Source: an uncultured Chthonomonadaceae bacterium
Lineage (GTDB): Bacteria > Armatimonadota > Chthonomonadetes > Chthonomonadales > Chthonomonadaceae
Direction: 5' to 3'
Assembly: GCA_963817895.1 (NCBI GenBank)
Contig: CAWFQB010000002.1
Coordinates: 1-64,000 of the forward strand
DNA: 64,000 nucleotides
The notes beneath the pieces are model-generated. The model saw only the letters and a list, made by a program, of their open reading frames with translations. It searched no databases and had not been told where the DNA came from. Positions 3-12,722 of this stretch are shown here, piece after piece (the stretch's first letter is position 1; every line of letters starts with the position of its first letter). The position numbers and the translations under genes were made by a program.

Positions 3-488
3 GAGTCGGTTGACATGGCGGAGATGCGCGCGTTCTACGATGTGTTCTGGGAAACCAGCCTGCGCGGGCGGTTCTTTGCCGAACCCTACGGCTTTTTCCT
101 CAATCTCGGCGCGGCGCTGTTTCCCGCCAATCGCGCGTTTTTGTTTTTCGCGCGTTGGCAGGGCGAAATTCTGGCGGCTATCCTCGTCGTATTTTTCGGG
201 CGGCGGGCAACGTACCTGTACGGCGGCTCTTCCACGCGCCACCGCAACTTCATGCCGAACTACGCCCTGCACCACGCGGCGATGCAGGCGGCAAGGCAAC
301 GCGGCTGCGCGGAATACGACTGGTACGGCTATGACCCGTTCGGCCAGCCCGGACATCTGTTCGCGGGCATTTCGCGCTTCAAAACCCAATGGGGCGCGCG
401 GCGCGTAGACGGCATGGGCGCACACGACCTGATTTTCTACGACGAACTCGCCGACCGCGTAATCGAACGCCTGAATACCTTTTCCTAA
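3..488 (+). CDS. FemAB/FemX-family peptidoglycan bridge aminoacyltransferase (GNAT fold), 5'-truncated by the window edge
   Basis: ATYLYGGSS...MPNYALH...A..RGC.EYDWYG and GISRFK.QWG motifs typical of the FemABX C-terminus; the frame is open from the window start. Confidence 0.8.
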   Translation, partial: ESVDMAEMRAFYDVFWETSLRGRFFAEPYGFFLNLGAALFPANRAFLFFARWQGEILAAILVVFFGRRATYLYGGSSTRHRNFMPNYALHHAAMQAARQRGCAEYDWYGYDPFGQPGHLFAGISRFKTQWGARRVDGMGAHDLIFYDELADRVIERLNTFS

Positions 489-650
489 ACACAAATTACC
501 TTGGGTACAAAATATTATTAGCGTATTCCTTACTAATGCAGGATTTATCCTGCAACGCCGATAACTATCCCCTGTGTGCCACAATAGGTTGAGACAAAAT
601 CCCGTACACGAAATAGTGTAGATCGCCAGGGCGGAGAATGGATTTCTCAG

Positions 651-1097
651 ATGAATACGCCGTTGACAGACAGCCCAACCACTCGCCTCACCAACAATGG
701 ACACCACAGCGCGCCCTCCCCCGCGCTGCGCCCGGAGGCGCAGGTGCAAACGCGCCCCCCGCGCCGCCGCTTTACCGCTGCGTACAAGCTGCGCATCCTT
801 AAAGAAGCCGACGCCTGCGTCAAGCCGGGAGAGTTGGGGGCGCTGCTTCGCCGCGAAGGGCTGTACTCCTCCACGCTTGCCAACTTCCGCAAACTGCGCG
901 AGGCGGGTCAGTTGGGCAAGAAGAACTCTGCCCAGGCGCAGAAGCAGCGCAAAGACAAAGAAGCCGCCCGCCAACGCGATGCCCGCAGGATGGCCGCTCT
1001 GGAAACCGAGAACCAGAAACTGCGCGTTCTGCTGGAACTCCAAAAAAAAGTAGCGGCCTTGCTCGACCTGACACTGGAAGAAACCGCCTCCGAATAA
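651..1097 (+). CDS. IS3-family transposase OrfA (HTH)
   Basis: RRRFTAAYKLRILKEADAC...GALLRREGLYSS, then a coiled coil and ELQKK over an A8 run. Confidence 0.85.
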   Translation: MNTPLTDSPTTRLTNNGHHSAPSPALRPEAQVQTRPPRRRFTAAYKLRILKEADACVKPGELGALLRREGLYSSTLANFRKLREAGQLGKKNSAQAQKQRKDKEAARQRDARRMAALETENQKLRVLLELQKKVAALLDLTLEETASE

Positions 1098-1099
1098 GC

Positions 1100-2123
1100 C
1101 TGGTTGCCGAAGCGGGCGCAACGACCGGGATTGGCCGCGCCTGTGATGCGGTGCAACTGAGCCGCGCCCGCTTCTACCGGGAGCAACACGCTGGTACGGG
1201 CACAATCCAAGAAGGCGTCCTGTTCCCAAAGCAGAACGGGGTTCTCCTCGCCGCTTGTCGGAAGAGGAACGCGCCCTGTTGCTCAATCTACTCTTGTCGG
1301 AACGCTTTGTAGACGCTTCGCCCCGGCAGGTGTATGCGCAATTGCTGCAAGAAGGCGTGTATCACGCTTCCTATCGCACGGTGTATCGCCTGCTGCACGA
1401 ACACCAAGCCATCTGTGAGCGTCGGCGGGTTCGCAGGCATCCGGCGTATAGCAAACCTGAACTTAAGGCAACCGGCCTTAATCAGGTGTGGACATGGGAC
1501 ATCACCTACTTGAAGACGCCCATTCGGGGTCGCTTCTATTACTTATATGTGGTTATGGACATCTACAGTCGTTATGTGGTCGGCTGGATGCTCGCAGACC
1601 GGGAGTGTCAATACCTGGCGCACAAGCTGCTGCAAGAAACCTGTCGTAAATACAACATCGCGCCTAACCAACTCACCCTCCATGCGGATCGCGGCGGGCC
1701 ATTAAAAGCCAGTCGGTAGCGCAGCTCTTACTTTCGTTGCAGGTGACCCGTTCGCACAGCCGCCCGCGTGTCAGCAACGACAACCCGTACTCGGAAGCCG
1801 GGTTCAAAACGATGAAGTACAGCGCCTACTTCCCGGAGCGCTTTAGCAGCCAGGAAGACGCGCAGACGTTCTGCCAGGACTACTTTGTCGGGTACAATAC
1901 GTGCCACCACCATACCGGCTTGGTGTTGCTTACGCCCGAACAGGTGCATTTCGGCGAAGCAACGCAGGTATTGGCGCAGCGGCAAGTCACGTTAGATAAC
2001 GCCTATGCCGCGCATCCGCAACGCTTTCGAGAGCGTCCGCAGGCGGGGCAGTTACCCAACGTCGTCTGGATCAATGCGCCTGCGTTGCCCGTTGGCGAAG
2101 GCACAGCACCGGTTGCCGGTTGA
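1100..2123 (+). CDS. IS3-family transposase OrfB (rve integrase core), split by frameshifts
   Basis: DDE motifs WTWDITYL, LHADRG, DNPYSEAGFK spread over ORFs 1255-1719 and 1737-2123; start approximate. Confidence 0.85.
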
Positions 2124-2393
2124 GTGGCGAGGAATGACTGCTCGCTACATAAAAATACTTTCGCTTTTTGTCTCAAAATCCTTGACACATTCCGATCTGT
2201 ATACAAGTAGCAGGATAGAGGTGATCTTCAAGCAGATCCAAGAGTAGATTGGGGACAAATCAGTAGATATTAGATTAGGATAGGAGGCCTTGCTGTTCCT
2301 ACAATCCAACTTTCATGTGGTTTGTTCAATATCGCTCCCACCTTTCCTATCTCCAGTATTTGTATATAGTGTAGGACACATAAGGAGATCAAC

Positions 2394-3131
2394 ATGAACA
2401 CGATAGTAGCAGAAGATGAAGGATTTGCAAAGGGTATCCGCCTCATTGCTCAGTGTCTGTCACAAGGTTGCTTACGACTACGATTTGCTGGGATACATGA
2501 GGCTCCTCAACTTGAAATAACAAGCAAAACATTATTAGAGGAAGCAAAGAAATCATTTGGTGTTTCAGATGAAGCCTTTATCAGTATTCATCATGAACTG
2601 CCTGACATGATTGGAGCCGTTCTTACCAATACGCAAACTCCGTACATCAGTATGCGCACTTCTGTTAACATTCGTCGCCTGACTCAGCAGGCTGGCAAGT
2701 CAGTGACAGATGAAGAAGCAGAACAAAAAACAACGGTGGAAACTCTTAGAAAACGTTTGCAGCTTGTGCGTGAGGAGTTAATCACCCCGCGCATTACTGA
2801 AAGGTTTGTACTCCGAAAAACGTCAGCTAATCCTCTGCTTCTCCAGTGCTCTGGAGAAGTTGCAAAGCAAGTCTACTCCACAGTGACAAACGCAGGTGTA
2901 GGCTATTATGCAACACTTGTGGTATTTACCGAAGGAGTTGATGTTGCCGAGAACACGCCAGTATTCTTCTCATCTATTGGCTTCCCTTTTGGAGATCGTA
3001 AGCGTCAAGATCAAATTACTCTGGCATGCGACGAAAGCGATCTGGATGCGTTGATTGATGTGTTACTCAACTTACGAGATAGGTTGAAAGAACAAGTAAA
3101 ACTGGAGACACAGCAGAATGACTCAAACTGA
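2394..3131 (+). CDS. Hypothetical protein (245 aa), gene 1 of AT-rich cassette; C-terminus possibly COMM-domain-like
   Basis: Strong RBS TAAGGAG before ATG; long ORF in AT-rich DNA; overlaps the next start. Confidence 0.75.
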   Translation: MNTIVAEDEGFAKGIRLIAQCLSQGCLRLRFAGIHEAPQLEITSKTLLEEAKKSFGVSDEAFISIHHELPDMIGAVLTNTQTPYISMRTSVNIRRLTQQAGKSVTDEEAEQKTTVETLRKRLQLVREELITPRITERFVLRKTSANPLLLQCSGEVAKQVYSTVTNAGVGYYATLVVFTEGVDVAENTPVFFSSIGFPFGDRKRQDQITLACDESDLDALIDVLLNLRDRLKEQVKLETQQNDSN

Positions 3132-3799
3132 GATAGATGAGCAAGCCGCGAAACTACTCGCTCCGTTTCCTGGTACATATTCTCAGGTCTGGAACGAACT
3201 GGATATTGAAAAGAGGTTGGCGGCGTTGGGGCTACCTCCTACTGAGCTTATCCATTATCTTAACTCCTGTTTGGGCAGATCAGCCCCTTTCGCATTAGAA
3301 GAAGCGGATACAACGGCATTTTCACTATTTGGTGACTACATCAATAACCGGATTGACAGTACAAACCAACATACATTTATAAGTGGAGCAAACGTAACGG
3401 CTCCCCCGATTGAAGATGTAAGAAACACTGTTGCACGTCATGCCACTCGCCTTAGTAAGCAATTTGGGGACCTAACGGCCCGTTTACCCGAAAGCATCTT
3501 GCTAAAGGAAGCCTTACGCCGACTTGAGCATGAGGCTGCACGTTACGACTACGAACCACTCAGTCGAATAGCGGCTATACTTCATAACGTTCTTGCGCTA
3601 CAATGCTATAGAAGCGTTTGATGATGTCATGCTACAAGGTTTTCTCGCAGCCCTGCAACAAGCTACTAACGGGCGCGCAGATCGAGTTGATCCTTTCGCA
3701 TGTGAATTGGCACTTTACAAAACCGGTCTTGACTGGCTGCCGCCAGTTCCATACTGGGATGAAGACGAAACCGCGGAGGATGATAGTGACGAGGAGTAA
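3118..3799 (+). CDS. Hypothetical protein (about 226 aa after one frameshift near 3592) with acidic tail, gene 2 of cassette
   Basis: ORFs 3118-3621 and 3593-3799 join as ...ILHNVL-RYNAIEAF...; ends WDEDETAEDDSDEE. Confidence 0.65.
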
Positions 3800-4245
3800 A
3801 TTGGATGTCGGATGCTGCCAAGAGCCTTTTTGTAGAGACGACAATTCATATCTGGCGTCATACTGCAACAGATGCTGCTAAACGCCGCATTGAGGGCAGC
3901 ATCAAATCTACACAATGTGTCACTTCAACTTATGTGGAAGCAGAATACATTAATACTTATTTGCGAGCGGCAGTACAAGCCTACAACTGTATTGTCGCAT
4001 CGGAAAACTTTGAAGATGCACTTGGACGTTGGGAAACCTATTACGCGAGCCAGTACAAACTTGGTGTTCGTTTCCTCATCAACGCTATTTTCAGGAACAA
4101 CAATGAGAAAGCCGACTCTCTCCGCCGTCTACGAGAGTTGATTGAACAACGCTTGATGTTGCCGTTTGATTCCCGCGCCCAAATATTTGATGTTATAGAC
4201 CCTACTCAATGTGCCGCTGCTCATGTACGCCCACATCTAATTACA

Positions 4246-5391
4246 AACTCACCTTACGCAGGCGAGCAGTTTGTAGTCACAGATTTGCTGTTGTTGACGG
4301 TAGAATAGTGTCATGGACAAACAACTTCTGGACCTTTACTCAGACTATCTCCTTTGTTCGTTCGGCCTGACTACCGCGACGGGCCTTTCCACCCTGCTCG
4401 ACGGCGCGATTAGCCACGACAAGATCACGCGGTTCTTGTCAGGACGTGACTTCACTTCTTCGGACCTGTGGCATCTGGTCAAACCCTTGGTACGGCAGGT
4501 ACAATGTGAAGACGCAGTTCTGGTCTTCGATGACAGCATCGAAGAAAAACTCTATACGGATGAAAGCGAACTCATTTGCTGGCATTGGGATCATTGCTTC
4601 AACCGCAACGTGAAGGGCATCAACATTCTGACCTGTTTGTATCGCGCGCCCACTGCCGCTCTGCCCGTTGCCTTCGAGTTGATCCAAAAGTCGGCTTGGG
4701 AAACGCATAAGAAGACGGGCAAACCCAAGCGAGTGTGTCCCAAGACCAAGAACGAATACCTGCGCGAGATGGTGGCGCAATGTCAGAAGAACCAATTGCC
4801 TTTTCGCTATGTCCTGGCCGACGCTTGGTTCAGCGCGGCAGAAACGATGATGCACCTCAAAAACGAAGGCAAAACCGACTTTATCTTCCCGATTAAGGCC
4901 AACCGCAAGGTGGCTTTGTCCCAGGAAGACAAGTTGGCAGGCCGCTATATGCCCGTATCCTCGCTTTGCTGCGAAGCGGACGCCGTATTGAACATCTGGC
5001 TGGAGGGGGTAGACTTCCCCCTTCTGCTGTGTAAGCAGGTCTTTACAAACAAGGACGGCAGCCAGGGCGTTCTCTATCTCGTGACGAGTGACACGACGTT
5101 AAGCGGTTGCGACATCCAGACGATCTACCAAAAACGGTGGAAAGTGGAAGAGTATCACAAATCGGTCAAGAGCAATGCGAGTTTCGCCAAGTCGCCGACC
5201 AAAACTATTCGGACCCAGAGCAACCATATCTTCGCCTGTTTATGGGCGTATGTGAAGTTGGAAAGTCTGCGTTTGCAGACGCGCTTGAACCATTTTGCGA
5301 TGAAAGGCAGGCTCTACAAAGCGGCCCTTGCCAGCGCCTACCGCGAACTACAACTGCTCAAAGGCATGAGTGCGCCTGCGTAAGGTGAGTT
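4246..5391 (+). mobile_element. IS701-like insertion sequence
   Basis: Perfect 19-bp terminal inverted repeats AACTCACCTTACGCAGGCG (4246-4264 and 5373-5391); no target duplication seen. Confidence 0.9.
4313..5383 (+). CDS. IS701-family DDE transposase, intact
   Basis: SHDKITRFL, VLVFDDSIEEK, VLADAWF, YQKRWKVEEYHKSVK motifs. Confidence 0.9.
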   Translation: MDKQLLDLYSDYLLCSFGLTTATGLSTLLDGAISHDKITRFLSGRDFTSSDLWHLVKPLVRQVQCEDAVLVFDDSIEEKLYTDESELICWHWDHCFNRNVKGINILTCLYRAPTAALPVAFELIQKSAWETHKKTGKPKRVCPKTKNEYLREMVAQCQKNQLPFRYVLADAWFSAAETMMHLKNEGKTDFIFPIKANRKVALSQEDKLAGRYMPVSSLCCEADAVLNIWLEGVDFPLLLCKQVFTNKDGSQGVLYLVTSDTTLSGCDIQTIYQKRWKVEEYHKSVKSNASFAKSPTKTIRTQSNHIFACLWAYVKLESLRLQTRLNHFAMKGRLYKAALASAYRELQLLKGMSAPA

Positions 5392-5747
5392 GGTAAGGTC
5401 TACATACTAACATTAGAATTTCCATCTGCTGATGCACCACCAGGACTAAAACTCTTTCTAGCTAGGAAACATATTCTGCTAAGTCAAGTTGAGGCTGCAA
5501 TCACTTCAAATGATAAACATTGGCGCATGGTACGAAGCGGCTTACAAATGTTACTGCGGGGTGAATACAACCTCGGATTGCGCAAATGGCAGAAGATAGC
5601 CGACATTGTCATCGCTCTTGAGGCGCAACAAGCCGATTGTGAACTCTACAGCGGCAACAGGCAACACTTCGAGTTGGTATGCCGTGCAATGCAGATGCCT
5701 TTCAAACCTGAAAGCCGCGAATGATGCTGTGGTGAGGAACACTAATT

Positions 5748-6555
5748 ATGACAATTGCTTCCATTGCTTCTATTCCAATCGTTCAATTCGAGCGCGAGGG
5801 GTATGTCCTGTTTCCGCATGTTCTGGATGGGGATTTGATTGCCGAAGCCGGAGAGCATGTGGAGTGGCTTCAGCAGACAGCATCCCGACCTGCGCCCGGA
5901 ACAACTCGGACACACGCTGATGACCGATGATCCGTTCTGGGTGCGATTGGTCAGCGACGACCGATTGCTCGACATCGCGCAGCAGTTCATCGGACCGAAC
6001 ATCGCCCTGTTCGCCTCGCACTACATCAGCAAGCCGCCGTTCGACGGTCAGCCCGTGCTGTGGCATCAGGACGGCAGTTACTGGCCGCTCGATCCGATGG
6101 AGGTGGTGACATTGTGGCTGGCCGTAGACGACTCCACGCCCGAAAACGGCTGTATGCGGGTGATACCGCGCACACAAACGATGGATTTGCAGGAGATGAA
6201 GAAGCGAACGGACGTGCAAAGCGTGTTGAGTTCCGGCATGGACGATGAATTCGTAGACGAGTCGCAGGCGGTTGATTGCGTCCTGCCCAAAGGCGGCGTG
6301 TCCGTGCATCATCCCAATCTCATTCACGGCTCCAACGCCAACCACTCTCCCCATCGTCGCTGCGGCCTGACCATCCGCTATATTCCCACGAGTACCCACA
6401 TCCTGATGCGCGGCCCGCTCACGCCCGAAGGCCGCTGGCCGAGCGCGTTCCTGCTGCGCGGCGAAGCCGTCGAGGGCATCAACGACTACAACCCCTATCC
6501 GCGCTATGTAGAGGGCAAGCATAAGCCGTTCAAAGGTTGCGAGGATTGGAAGTAG
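5748..6555 (+). CDS. Phytanoyl-CoA dioxygenase (PhyH) family protein, frameshift near 5878
   Basis: FEREGYV N-terminus, WHQD, ENGCMRVIP, HGS.AN.S..RR motifs. Confidence 0.88.
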
Positions 6556-9370: not shown

Positions 9371-9726
9371 TCAGATTCTGGGCTTGAGATCATCCTCTAC
9401 CGAATGAAGCAGTTCAAAGATACGCGCCCCGCGCTCAATGCCGTAATCGTAGAGAAATTCCAGTTCCGGCGCGATACGCAAATGCGCCCGCCGCGCGAAC
9501 TCGCCCCGCAACATCCCCGACGCCCGGTTCAGCGCAATCAAACTCTGCTTGCGCGATTCCTCATCCCCCAACACGCTGATATACACTTTGGCATGGCGCA
9601 GGTCCGCGAAATCTCCGCGCCCGTCAGCGTGATAAATCCCAAACGCGGATCGCTCAAATCGCGCCGGATAATCTCGCTGATCTCCTGCACCAACTGCTCC
9701 TGCACTTTTTCCTGTCGCACACTCAT
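9371..9726 (-). CDS. rbfA: Ribosome-binding factor A, frameshift near 9605
   Basis: SDPRLGFITLT, then AKVYIS and LRIAPELEFLYD; operon context. Confidence 0.92.
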
Positions 9727-10267: not shown

Positions 10268-12265
10268 TTAGTATCGTGGGACCTGGCGCATTTCAAAACA
10301 TTCCAGAATGTCGCCCTCTTTGACATCCGTGAAATCCTGAAGGACCACGCCGCACTCGTAGCCGGTGGCAACGTCGCGCACGTCGTCTTTCACGCGGCGC
10401 AGGGTATCAATTTTGCCGGTGAAGATGATATCCTTGCCCCGTCTGACGTTGACGCTGGCTCCGCGCTGGAGTTTGCCTTCCGTAACGAAGCTGCCCGCGA
10501 TGACAATGCCCTTCGGGGTTCGGAAGACCTGCCGCACTTCGGCTTTGCCCAGGTCTGCCGGCTCGTAGATGGGCGTAAGCAGGCCCTTCATGGCCTTATC
10601 CATGTCCTCGGTCAGGTCGTAGATGATGTTGTACAGGCGAATATCCACGCCGTCACGATCAGCGGTTTTTTGCGCCGCCACTTCCGCGCGCACGTTGAAA
10701 CCGATGATGATAGAGCCGGTCGTTTCCGCGTACAGCACGTCCGAGTCGGTGATGTTGCCCACATCGCTGTACTTGATGTTCAGGCGCACTTCGGCCTCTG
10801 TCTTGTTGGCTTCCAGTTTGTGCAATTGTCCGACAACCGCTTCCACGCTGCCCTGCACATCGCCCTTGACAACCAGATTCAGGTCTTTCACGGATACCAG
10901 AGCCGAAGCGCGGGCATAGTCCGCCAGCGTCGAGCGCCGGATCGTGCCGCTCAAACGGTTATCGCGCTGTACCTGCGTCCGGTCATCGCTCAGAGTTCGC
11001 GCTTCCTTTTCGGTCTTCGTGACCTGCACCTGATCGCCTGCATTGGGCGCGTTGTTCAGGCCGACCACTTCAACGGGCGTTGCGGGCGGCGCTTTCAGCA
11101 GCCGTTCGCCCCGCTCATTAATCATCGCGCGCACTTTGCCGAACGTGGAACCGGCCACAATGTTGTCGCCAACGCGCAGTGTGCCGGACTGCACCAGAAC
11201 GGTTGCGACCGGCCCGCGTCCCGGCTGCACATTCGCTTCCACAATCGCGCCCGTCATCGGCGCGGAGGGGTCCGCCTTGAACTCCTGCACTTCCGCCACG
11301 AGCAGAATGTATTCCAGCAGTTCGTTGATGCCGGTTCCATCCTTCGCGGAAACAGGCACGGAAATCACGTCGCCGCCGTAATCTTCCACCACTAAATTGT
11401 GTTCGGTCAACTGCTGCTTGATGCGGTCGGGCTTGGCGTCCGGCTTGTCCATCTTGTTCATCGCGACAATGATGGGAACTTCAGCGGCCTGCGCGTGATT
11501 GATCGCTTCCACGGTTTGCGGCATGATGCCGTCGTCGGCAGCCACAACCAGAATCACGATGTCGGTCACGCTTGCGCCGCGCGCCCGCATTTCGGTAAAC
11601 GCGGCGTGGCCGGGCGTGTCCAGAAACGTGATTTTCTGTTTCCCGCCGTTATGGTCTACCTCTACCTGATACGCGCCGATGTGTTGCGTGATGCCGCCAT
11701 GTTCGCCATCCACCACTTTCGTCTTGCGAATGGTGTCCAGCAGCGACGTTTTGCCATGATCGACGTGTCCCATGATGGTGACAACGGGCGGGCGCGGCTG
11801 CAAAGCTCCCGCAAGCGCTTTCGGTTTCGGCGCGGGTTTGGGCGCAGGCGCGGGCGCAGCCCCCGTCTCGGTTGCGGACGGCGCGGCGACCGGCTTTTCA
11901 GTTTTGGGCGCGAGCGTGAAGCCGAACGCGGCGGCCAGTTTACTGGCAAGGTCGGGCTTGATGCGCTGTCGGGGCGCAATCAACTCGTTCATGCCCATCA
12001 ATTTTTTTACGGCGTCGTTGGCGGTAATGCCCATCGCGTCGGCAATGTCCTGCACCGTTGGGTTCGGCCCGACTTCGGCCACTTTGCCTGTCGGCGCGGC
12101 CTTGAGCAGCATTTCGCGCACCATGCCGGCTGTTTCCAGATCAAGGGTCGCGTTTGTGCCGGACGCTTTCACGCCTAAATCCATCAAATCCGCCATCATC
12201 TCGGCGGGGGTCTTTTTCAGTTCTCTCGCTAAATCGCTAACTCGTACTCCTGCAATCGCTGTCAT
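10268..12265 (-). CDS. infB: Translation initiation factor IF-2
   Basis: [28 protein letters not shown]; likely start MTAIAGVRV at 12265. Confidence 0.97.
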
Positions 12266-12362
12266 GCGTCTTCGTTCTCGCTTTCCTGCGGCGTTCGCGC
12301 CGCTCCTCGGGTTGTTGGTGGTTACATTGGTGTTCGCTCCTCGGTTGAGAATCGCCGTTCTT

Positions 12363-12722
12363 TCAGAAAGCGGGCGGCAATTCGGTATCTTCCGCTGCGG
12401 GTTCAGCCGAAGTTGAAACCGGTGGCGGCATGGACACAATAGGTTCCGGCGAAGGATTTAATGCAGCCTGCGCGTTCAATTCCTCGAACAGGGTTTCCGG
12501 CACGCCGCTCACTTTGAGCGAGCGTTCCAGCTTTTTTTGCTTGCGGGCCAGCATAATGCAGGTTGTCCGCGCGCAAAGGTAGGCGCCCCGCCCCGACAGT
12601 TTGCCTGTCGGGTCGTAGCGGAGCGAGCCATCGGGTTGGCGCGCGATGCGCAGCAAATCGCGTTTCTCATCAGTTGCGCGACAGGCGACGCAGGTGCGAA
12701 TGGGCGTGTGTTTGGGCTTCAT
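12363..12722 (-). CDS. ylxR: YlxR / DUF448 RNA-binding protein
   Basis: PIRTCVACR...DPTGKLSGRGAYLC. Confidence 0.92.
   Translation of the reverse strand: MKPKHTPIRTCVACRATDEKRDLLRIARQPDGSLRYDPTGKLSGRGAYLCARTTCIMLARKQKKLERSLKVSGVPETLFEELNAQAALNPSPEPIVSMPPPVSTSAEPAAEDTELPPAF

Follow-up and report, generated by a model that had tools for sequence, protein, structure and literature searches.

What is the AT-rich cassette of three genes that lies downstream of an insertion sequence in the genome of an uncultured Chthonomonadaceae bacterium, and what might it do? The window, which is the whole stretch of 64,000 nucleotides that we analysed (GenBank assembly GCA_963817895.1, contig CAWFQB010000002.1), is the beginning of contig C2 of this genome (G000; 7.5 Mb, 14 contigs, GC 0.57), and the cassette lies close to the contig start. 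The genes are co-directional and tightly coupled: genes 1 and 2 overlap by 14 bp, and genes 2 and 3 are separated by 5 bp (3800–3804) behind a GAGGAG motif at 3791–3796, with gene 3 running from 3805 to 5724. This arrangement had been described in a first-pass annotation of the sequence and is present as stated there. The same annotation proposed an acquired module composed of a scaffold or sensor, a regulator, and an RNase effector, in which genes 1 and 2 belonged to no family that could be named. We examined the relatives of each gene, and we give an even chance to the reading that this mobile three-gene operon is a toxin-antitoxin module of three components in which a COMMD-like protein acts as the control.

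A large PIN protein and its upstream partner

The 5′ half of gene 3 was 45% and 39% identical to two intact homologues in G010, a genome of the same phylum (2 of 301 genomes were matched, with G000 counted), and the 3′ part was collinear with the intact homologues. The PIN motif residues E11, E47, D217, and N235 are present in the window protein (256-aa numbering, which assumes a 7-bp target duplication of the inserted IS701-family element), as are all of the motifs that had been quoted from it before; the earlier length of 257 aa is corrected by one residue. Using a profile built from 8 close relatives, we found a family of 360 clusters at 50% identity (E ≤ 0.001), and nearly all of the listed full-length members had 240–290 aa. 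The structure of the intact homologue P0005 was predicted from 130 sequences with a pLDDT of 96.7. Upon comparison with 48,161 chains using VIA, the 17 best matches were all PIN-domain proteins, which agrees with the fold that the first-pass annotation had assumed. The best of these was VapC21 (Z 11.8, rmsd 3.0), of which 133 of 135 residues were aligned over the model range 4–253, and these values indicate that the predicted fold is a VapC core interrupted by an insertion of ~120 residues. A Foldseek search with the same model gave no match at E ≤ 0.001.

The putative metal-site residues were highly conserved among the 130 homologues (D/E10 in 127, and E/Q46, D214, and N/D233 in all 130). The fourth, post-S4 position is Asn in the window protein and in 99 of the homologues and Asp in the other 31, and an extra Glu was retained in 109. 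Some active VapCs also carry Asn at the post-S4 position. Based on the model and these residues, the family is likely to have nuclease activity. Four cysteines of the insertion occurred together in 117 of the 130 homologues, which suggests that most members bind a metal there. In the ten-member subfamily to which the window protein belongs, the Cys4 positions (132, 152, 159, and 209 of P0005 in alignment A3) are occupied by C, F, a variable residue, and W, respectively.

The family is not reached by the usual searches. Both halves of window gene 3 and the two G010 homologues had no Pfam match and thus lie below the gathering threshold of PF01850 and its clan; PF01850 was touched by 10 of the 130 relatives at E ≤ 0.05 (best, 4.5e-6). 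Nothing below E 0.02 was returned by a PDB sequence search with the PIN profile, and a word-indexed search with the 5′ half of gene 3 found no homologue among proteins of 259–2000 aa. These comparisons suggest that gene 3 defines an unnamed and wide family of large PIN proteins, most of which contain a Cys4 insertion. Two members of 454–456 aa (P0158 and P0072) possess an N-terminal extension of 200 residues, which by eye resembles a restriction endonuclease in P0158.

The genes directly upstream of the large PIN genes were then compared, with each locus counted once and the near-copies L023, L027, and L033 excluded. A helical domain of ~120 residues is common to the C-termini of all 20 distinct partners in this comparison (leave-one-out E 3.6e-9 to 2.2e-32), and the partners are placed directly before the PIN gene, in the antitoxin-first order, with a spacing of −38 to +24 bp. 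Both halves of window gene 2 matched the 20-partner profile (E 1.4e-7 and 4.1e-8), and the protein was 30% identical to the two G010 partners in BLASTP (E 2e-8 and 9e-9). The N-termini of the partners are diverse. Of 8 partners scanned with Pfam, 2, both from Chloroflexota (L020 and L022), had a Phd/YefM N-terminus above the cut-off, and a Phd-like N-terminus was recognised by eye in L021, L025, L028, L029, and L030. The L031 partner has a receiver-like N-terminus (Pfam E 0.0068, below the cut-off), and the heads of L026 and L035, which had no Pfam match, are AbrB-like by appearance only. In G337, the N-domain of gene 1 is fused to the partner at the place where Phd sits elsewhere (E 1e-6). 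The N-terminus of the G389 partner also looked like a gene 1 homologue by eye, and this candidate was rejected (E 1.7). Window gene 2 had no Pfam match, and no DNA-binding N-terminus was recognised in it; the partners of the five other three-gene loci had no Phd-like N-terminus (by Pfam scan for G402 and by eye for the others).

Type II antitoxins are classically recognised by a Phd fusion encoded immediately ahead of a PIN gene. By this sign, the shared helical domain likely neutralises the PIN protein, and gene 2 is likely an antitoxin. The domain would thus be a new antitoxin-like domain that takes Phd, AbrB-like, receiver-like, or COMMD N-domain heads. The partner and the large PIN protein appear to form the invariant core of the module.

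This core is rare and widely scattered. The A2 profile of the PIN family matched 6 of 401 genomes of the same phylum, clade searches matched 2 of 301, 1 of 81, and 2 of 251 genomes (the last being an archaeal class), and a pattern scan of 185,579 genomes yielded 12 loci, namely ten from Chloroflexota, one from Methanosarcinales, and one from Poribacteria. The plasmid and phage collections contained no match for P0025, and the plasmids none for P0177; 45 pattern matches in viral contigs gave no confirmed locus, and in metagenomes the scan detected nothing beyond two copies of the G010 loci. The Poribacteria genome G403 contained 11 large-PIN matches (L034–L044) on eight contigs, mostly fragments and with three kinds of partner head, and 0 of 80 other genomes of that phylum were matched.

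The predicted COMMD-like first gene

A word-indexed homologue search with gene 1 returned only the protein itself, and the Atlas pointed weakly to a cluster in which 23% of the members were annotated as COMM_domain (score 0.82). Homologues were found before the partner genes in G285, G362, G402, and G942. The resulting five-member profile matched 4 of 401 genomes of the same phylum and 2 of 241 genomes of the archaeal class, including one new genome (G250) that was found through this profile alone and has the partner and PIN genes directly downstream. The six sequences belong to a single family (E 3.9e-8 to 5.5e-31 in leave-one-out comparisons, and 3.5e-12 at Z = 1 for the window protein) with 12–27% identity across bacteria and archaea and lengths of 200–245 aa. 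The order COMMD-like gene, partner, PIN gene is therefore found in six genomes (G000, G285, G362, G250, G402, and G942), two of which are archaeal, and all six gene 1 homologues stand directly before the partner and PIN genes, joined by overlaps or gaps of <30 bp. These results suggest that the module is conserved across distant bacteria and archaea. The first-pass annotation had treated the three genes as a unit; this holds for the order, which recurs in five further genomes, and is narrowed by the finding that gene 1 is present at only 5 of 20 other loci. The three-gene label required 3 changes on a tree of 18 PIN proteins (bootstrap range, 3–4), which indicates that the third gene is old or has been lost or gained repeatedly.

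The compact archaeal homologue P0175, which is 16–22% identical to the window protein, was used for structure prediction. The model (pLDDT 75, pTM 0.56) contained a helical N-domain with a β-hairpin, followed by a C-terminal three-stranded sheet and a long helix (strands at 134–142, 152–159, and 175–180, and helix at 182–200). Human COMMD chains and the bacterial COMMD-like protein 9q6a occupied ranks 1–11 in Foldseek; the best match had an E value of 2.1e-4, a probability of 1.00, and a TM score of 0.34 over the full length, and the E value of 9q6a was 6.3e-3. COMMD entries also occupied ranks 1–4 in VIA (Z 5.8–4.6). When the domains were compared separately, the N-domain (residues 12–124) matched 8f2r_C (Z 5.1, rmsd 3.5, 94 residues aligned) and also 9zn0 and 4nkn, and the COMM domain matched 8esd_F and 6bp6_B with a Z score of 4.5. 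A Myb/SANT-like DNA-binding identity was considered for the N-domain and rejected at Z scores of 3.6–4.5, which are at background level. In sequence searches, the Pfam COMM family PF07258 touched one homologue at E 0.27, below the cut-off, and the PDB gave nothing below E 0.02 for the gene 1 profile. Both domains were found in order by two aligners, fitting the definition of Liu et al., and the gene 1 family is predicted to be COMMD-like. Thus, the statement that genes 1 and 2 belong to no nameable family is retained for the Pfam, NCBIfam, and PADLOC libraries, which gave no match, and is modified for gene 1 by the homologue model.

Prokaryotic COMMD-like proteins were described by Liu et al. 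in 2026 (PMC13392464), in the accessible text of which their genomic contexts are either like those of a type VI secretion system (in Myxococcota) or species-level, and their function is given as unknown. In the same text, these proteins are judged to have no DNA- or RNA-binding surface residues, and no complexes were predicted between them and the products of neighbouring genes. The words "PIN", "toxin", and "operon" occur 0 times in its main text, and "PIN" and "VapC" occur 0 times in its 4 text supplements. Our literature search, which lay mostly outside subscription journals, found no paper in which PIN or toxin-antitoxin loci are linked to COMMD-like or COMM-domain proteins. No model in the Pfam, NCBIfam, and PADLOC scans names any of the three cassette genes, and PADLOC-DB 2.0 (2023 library) assigned 0 families to 5 window pieces, 8 PIN homologues, and the gene 1 and gene 2 homologues among 101 neighbour proteins. 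As far as these searches reach, the three-gene module is undescribed, as the first-pass annotation had supposed. Its three genes co-occur elsewhere, gene 3 has a PIN fold by the homologue model, and no named system matched; the annotation had named these as the three points on which its proposal could fail.

The cassette and its insertion site in G000

The features around the cassette are summarised in Table 1. Excluding the IS701-family element, the cassette has a GC content of 0.452, compared with a genome mean of 0.568 (SD 0.028), and values as low were found in only 0.35% of 3110 G000 windows of 2.4 kb, in accordance with the AT-richness noted before. The orthologues of the femAB-like and phyH-like flanking genes are separated by only 54 bp in G389, a genome of the same genus, which indicates that approximately 489–5747 of the window is an insertion. 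The cassette is thus a foreign, inserted module, and its acquisition by horizontal transfer, as had been proposed, is borne out by both observations. A two-gene version consisting of the partner and PIN genes is located in G389 (L014, 8796–10189) about 4 kb from the orthologous femAB–phyH site, behind a gene that by eye resembles formate-tetrahydrofolate ligase.

Table 1. Features at the beginning of the window
Feature	Position	Strand	Basis
FemAB/GNAT-family gene, 3′ part, left flank; the contig begins inside the gene	3..488	+	Pfam FemAB E 4.5e-16
IS3-family insertion sequence, frame-broken	570..2194	+	Pfam rve, HTH_Tnp_1; NCBIfam IS3 below cut-off as fragment
Leader with AAGGAG ribosome-binding site at 2382–2387	2195..2393	+	Sequence; GC 0.40
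Gene 1, intact, 245 aa; predicted COMMD-like protein with a C-terminal COMM domain behind a helical N-domain that contains a β-hairpin	2394..3131	+	Profile match; homologue model
Gene 2, likely antitoxin, ~226 aa across one frameshift; conserved C-terminal helical domain	3118..3799	+	Partner profile, BLASTP
Gene 3, 5′ part, containing PIN strands S1 and S2 (E11, E47) and the first portion of the insertion	3805..4247	+	G010 homologues; profile E 6.5e-51
IS701-family insertion sequence inside gene 3; transposase at 4313–5383	4248..5389	+	NCBIfam NF049921, 338.7 bits, above cut-off
Gene 3, 3′ part: remaining insertion and PIN core with D217, E223, and N235; open frame from 5392	5390..5724	+	Profile E 7.9e-39
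PhyH-family dioxygenase, right flank, frameshift near 5876	5748..6555	+	Pfam PhyH E 4.6e-31

The IS3-family element directly upstream had been noticed before, and it and the IS701-family element are both residents of this genome, with 14 and 13 copies, respectively. The IS3 element was considered as the carrier of the cassette and rejected, as it has 14 copies and its own ends and the right flank has no second copy. In comparison with its 13 other copies, the IS3 copy of the window has 7 private substitutions and 4 private one-base indels, and it is an older, decayed copy or represents poor sequence near the contig end. The IS701-family element has a 24-nt terminal inverted repeat, and its ends were fixed by 12 other copies, all of which have target duplications of 7–8 bp; they replace the segment 4246–5391 that had been marked for removal. 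Alone among the 13, the window copy lacks a matching duplication (agreement at 4 of 7 bases; right flank, 5390–5396), and the 12 bases on its left side (4236–4247) are the same as those at the copy C5:101963, as would result from gene conversion between copies or from an artefact of polishing.

The frameshift in gene 2 may lie anywhere in 3575–3621. The position 3592 that had been proposed is inside this range, and the homologues fit best with a position at ~3595–3607. This frameshift may be a sequencing error, since indels are frequent nearby (4 private ones in the IS3 copy and 1 in phyH). In this region, the reads of four sequencing runs cover the IS701-family element and phyH only. The related contigs have one base fewer at 5876 or 5878 of phyH, and the orthologue in G389 is intact with 268 aa; by eye, rbfA and infB (9371–9726 and 10268–12439) are frame-broken like phyH. 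The G000 assembly is probably indel-rich. Whichever status the gene 2 frameshift has, the nuclease gene is split by the IS701-family element, and the module in G000 is likely inactive.

Candidate functions and known systems

The following mechanism is proposed for intact copies of the module. By analogy with VapC, the PIN protein would cut RNA (tRNA or rRNA) and halt growth when it is free, and its ~120-residue insertion may be a metal-stabilised docking or specificity domain. The helical domain of gene 2 would bind and block the PIN protein. Gene 1 would dimerise through its COMM domain, possibly into a ring of 8–10 subunits, and may hold or repress the pair of gene 2 and gene 3 products until a signal of stress or infection frees the toxin. 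The three-gene partners without a recognised head, together with the fusion of the gene 1 N-domain in G337, suggest that gene 1 supplies in trans the control that the Phd, AbrB-like, or receiver-like heads of the two-gene versions would give in cis. Compared with the scaffold or sensor, regulator, and RNase effector that had been proposed, the PIN fold and the co-occurrence in the same order agree, whereas gene 2 looks like an antitoxin and not like a separate regulator.

Several observations weigh against this proposal. For the nuclease, the post-S4 residue of PIN domains is almost invariably acidic in the accessible text of Matelska et al. (PMC5499597), and it is Asn in most of the family; moreover, all ten sequences of the window subfamily hold at most one of the 4 insertion cysteines. 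For the partner, one full-length PIN copy in G403 (C249) has no partner directly upstream (several G403 PIN fragments could not be scored), the loci with Phd heads are kin, and the two G010 loci and the G389 two-gene locus also lack a recognised DNA-binding head. For gene 1, the COMMD match is modest (TM 0.25–0.34, Z 4.5–5.8, pLDDT 75, pTM 0.56, 6 sequences) and comes from an archaeal homologue. In addition, gene 1 was not detected at 15 of 20 other loci and so appears dispensable; contig ends limit this absence at L021, L026, L028, L030, and L039, and whole-genome checks for gene 1 were negative in G403, G389, G337, and G010. The surface and complex results in the accessible text of Liu et al. 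weigh against a repressor role for gene 1. Because of this surface judgement and the unclean pattern of the heads, a scaffold or sensor role for gene 1 is as open as that of a repressor.

An abortive-infection system is unlikely but is the most probable of the alternatives. Phage defence is known to use PIN and toxin-antitoxin effectors, and a COMMD-like ring could sense a phage protein or structure and free the PIN RNase from gene 2, so that the infected cell is killed or arrested. The module is rare, patchy, and of foreign GC (present in 6 of 401 genomes from its own phylum and 2 of 251 from the archaeal class), and the interchangeable N-termini of the partners resemble swapped inputs. We scanned 101 neighbour proteins at 15 loci, with L027 excluded as a near-copy and L005, L014, L021, L028, L031, L035, and L039 outside the scan. 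A single defence island was found, at G010 C310, where matches to PDC-S39, PDC-S01, a type III methyltransferase, and HEC-09 surround the locus; this is a two-gene locus (L004), which also has MqsA, HD, AAA_14, and NYN genes nearby. A PDC-S70 match was located about 1 kb upstream in G942, and the other scanned loci had only generic matches to cyclase, cNMP-binding, helicase, ParA, or subtilase domains. Beyond the window, the three-gene loci stand singly among housekeeping genes, the five of them adjoining recR/porG, ispDF, a sulfatase, thioredoxin/arginase, and NUBPL, and none of the three genes is matched by a PADLOC model. Defence-island proximity, which had been suggested as a check, is hence the exception. 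Such surroundings are more in keeping with a toxin-antitoxin module that moves on its own than with a resident of defence islands, and abortive infection is compatible with them.

It is distinctly unlikely that the locus is an ordinary two-gene type II pair with an oversized VapC, and that the COMMD-like gene travels along as a passenger, kept stable by the addiction module. Phd–PIN pairs are textbook type II loci, and gene 1 went undetected at most of the loci, as would be expected of a passenger. However, all six members of the gene 1 family occupy the same position in tight coupling in both bacteria and archaea despite their low identity, and in G337 the partner protein has the N-domain as its head, neither of which suits a passenger. 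It is very unlikely that the large PIN protein, rather than being a toxin, is a regulated nuclease for RNA processing or signalling, or a scaffold of weak catalytic activity, with genes 1 and 2 as its subunits, since the Asn at the fourth metal position, the structured 120-residue insertion, and the receiver-like domain of one partner are outweighed by a sporadic spread, frequent decay (in the window and in most of the 11 G403 matches, which are fragments), and Phd fusions that fit a selfish or conflict module.

We consider it tentative and on balance doubtful that prokaryotic COMMD-like rings are scaffolds for sensing infection or stress, in which a ring of 8–10 subunits holds an antitoxin–PIN RNase complex and releases it upon phage infection. 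If this were true, the ancestor of the Commander ring would join the eukaryotic machineries derived from bacterial conflict systems. The link between COMMD-like and PIN proteins bears on the origin of the eukaryotic Commander complex, and the gene 1 lineage, which always occurs with an antitoxin-like gene and a PIN gene, gives a testable job and a simple read-out to prokaryotic proteins that, in the accessible text of PMC13392464, have no known function and no predicted partners.

The cassette resembles the VapBC and Phd–VapC type II pairs (VapC21, 5sv2; VapBC11, 6a7v; FitAB, 2bsq) in the PIN core of ~133 residues, which superposes with Z scores of 9–12, in the antitoxin-first operon with overlapping genes, and in the Phd heads of some partners. 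It differs from them in the PIN protein of 245–290 aa with an insertion of ~120 residues that usually contains Cys4, in the partner that carries a ~120-residue helical domain without a Pfam match in place of a short disordered tail, and in the third, COMMD-like gene. In paaR-paaA-parE and omega-epsilon-zeta, a separate first gene encoding an HTH or RHH repressor precedes an antitoxin without a recognised DNA-binding domain, and the toxin, ParE or zeta, comes last. The cassette has the same layout but a predicted COMMD-like first gene and a PIN-like toxin, and it is set apart from these systems by their descriptions only.

In regards to the COMMD proteins, the prokaryotic COMMD-like proteins in the accessible text of PMC13392464 (9q6a and 9q6c) and human COMMD1–10 (8f2r and 8p0w) share with the modelled gene 1 homologue a helical N-domain and, after it, a sheet of three strands with a long helix, and both domains match in order. 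The sequence identity to them is under 20%, the model of the gene 1 homologue has an extra β-hairpin after the first helix, and, unlike in the contexts described in that text, gene 1 shares its operon with genes for a predicted PIN nuclease and an antitoxin-like protein. COMMD proteins form obligate COMM dimers that close into rings of 8 or 10 subunits, whereas gene 1 is represented here by sequences and a monomer model, with which a CT584-like hexamer geometry is also possible. Finally, the two G010 loci (L004, 4630–6543, and L005, 2111–4108) both directly follow a DUF4209 gene of 640–665 aa, which is HEPN-like and matched PADLOC PDC-S39 in the L004 copy. DUF4209 was rejected as a fixed third part; it is absent from the window, is unrelated to gene 1, and was not seen upstream at the other loci. 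By these comparisons, the cassette would work like VapBC or a three-component type II system, yet it stands outside any named family.

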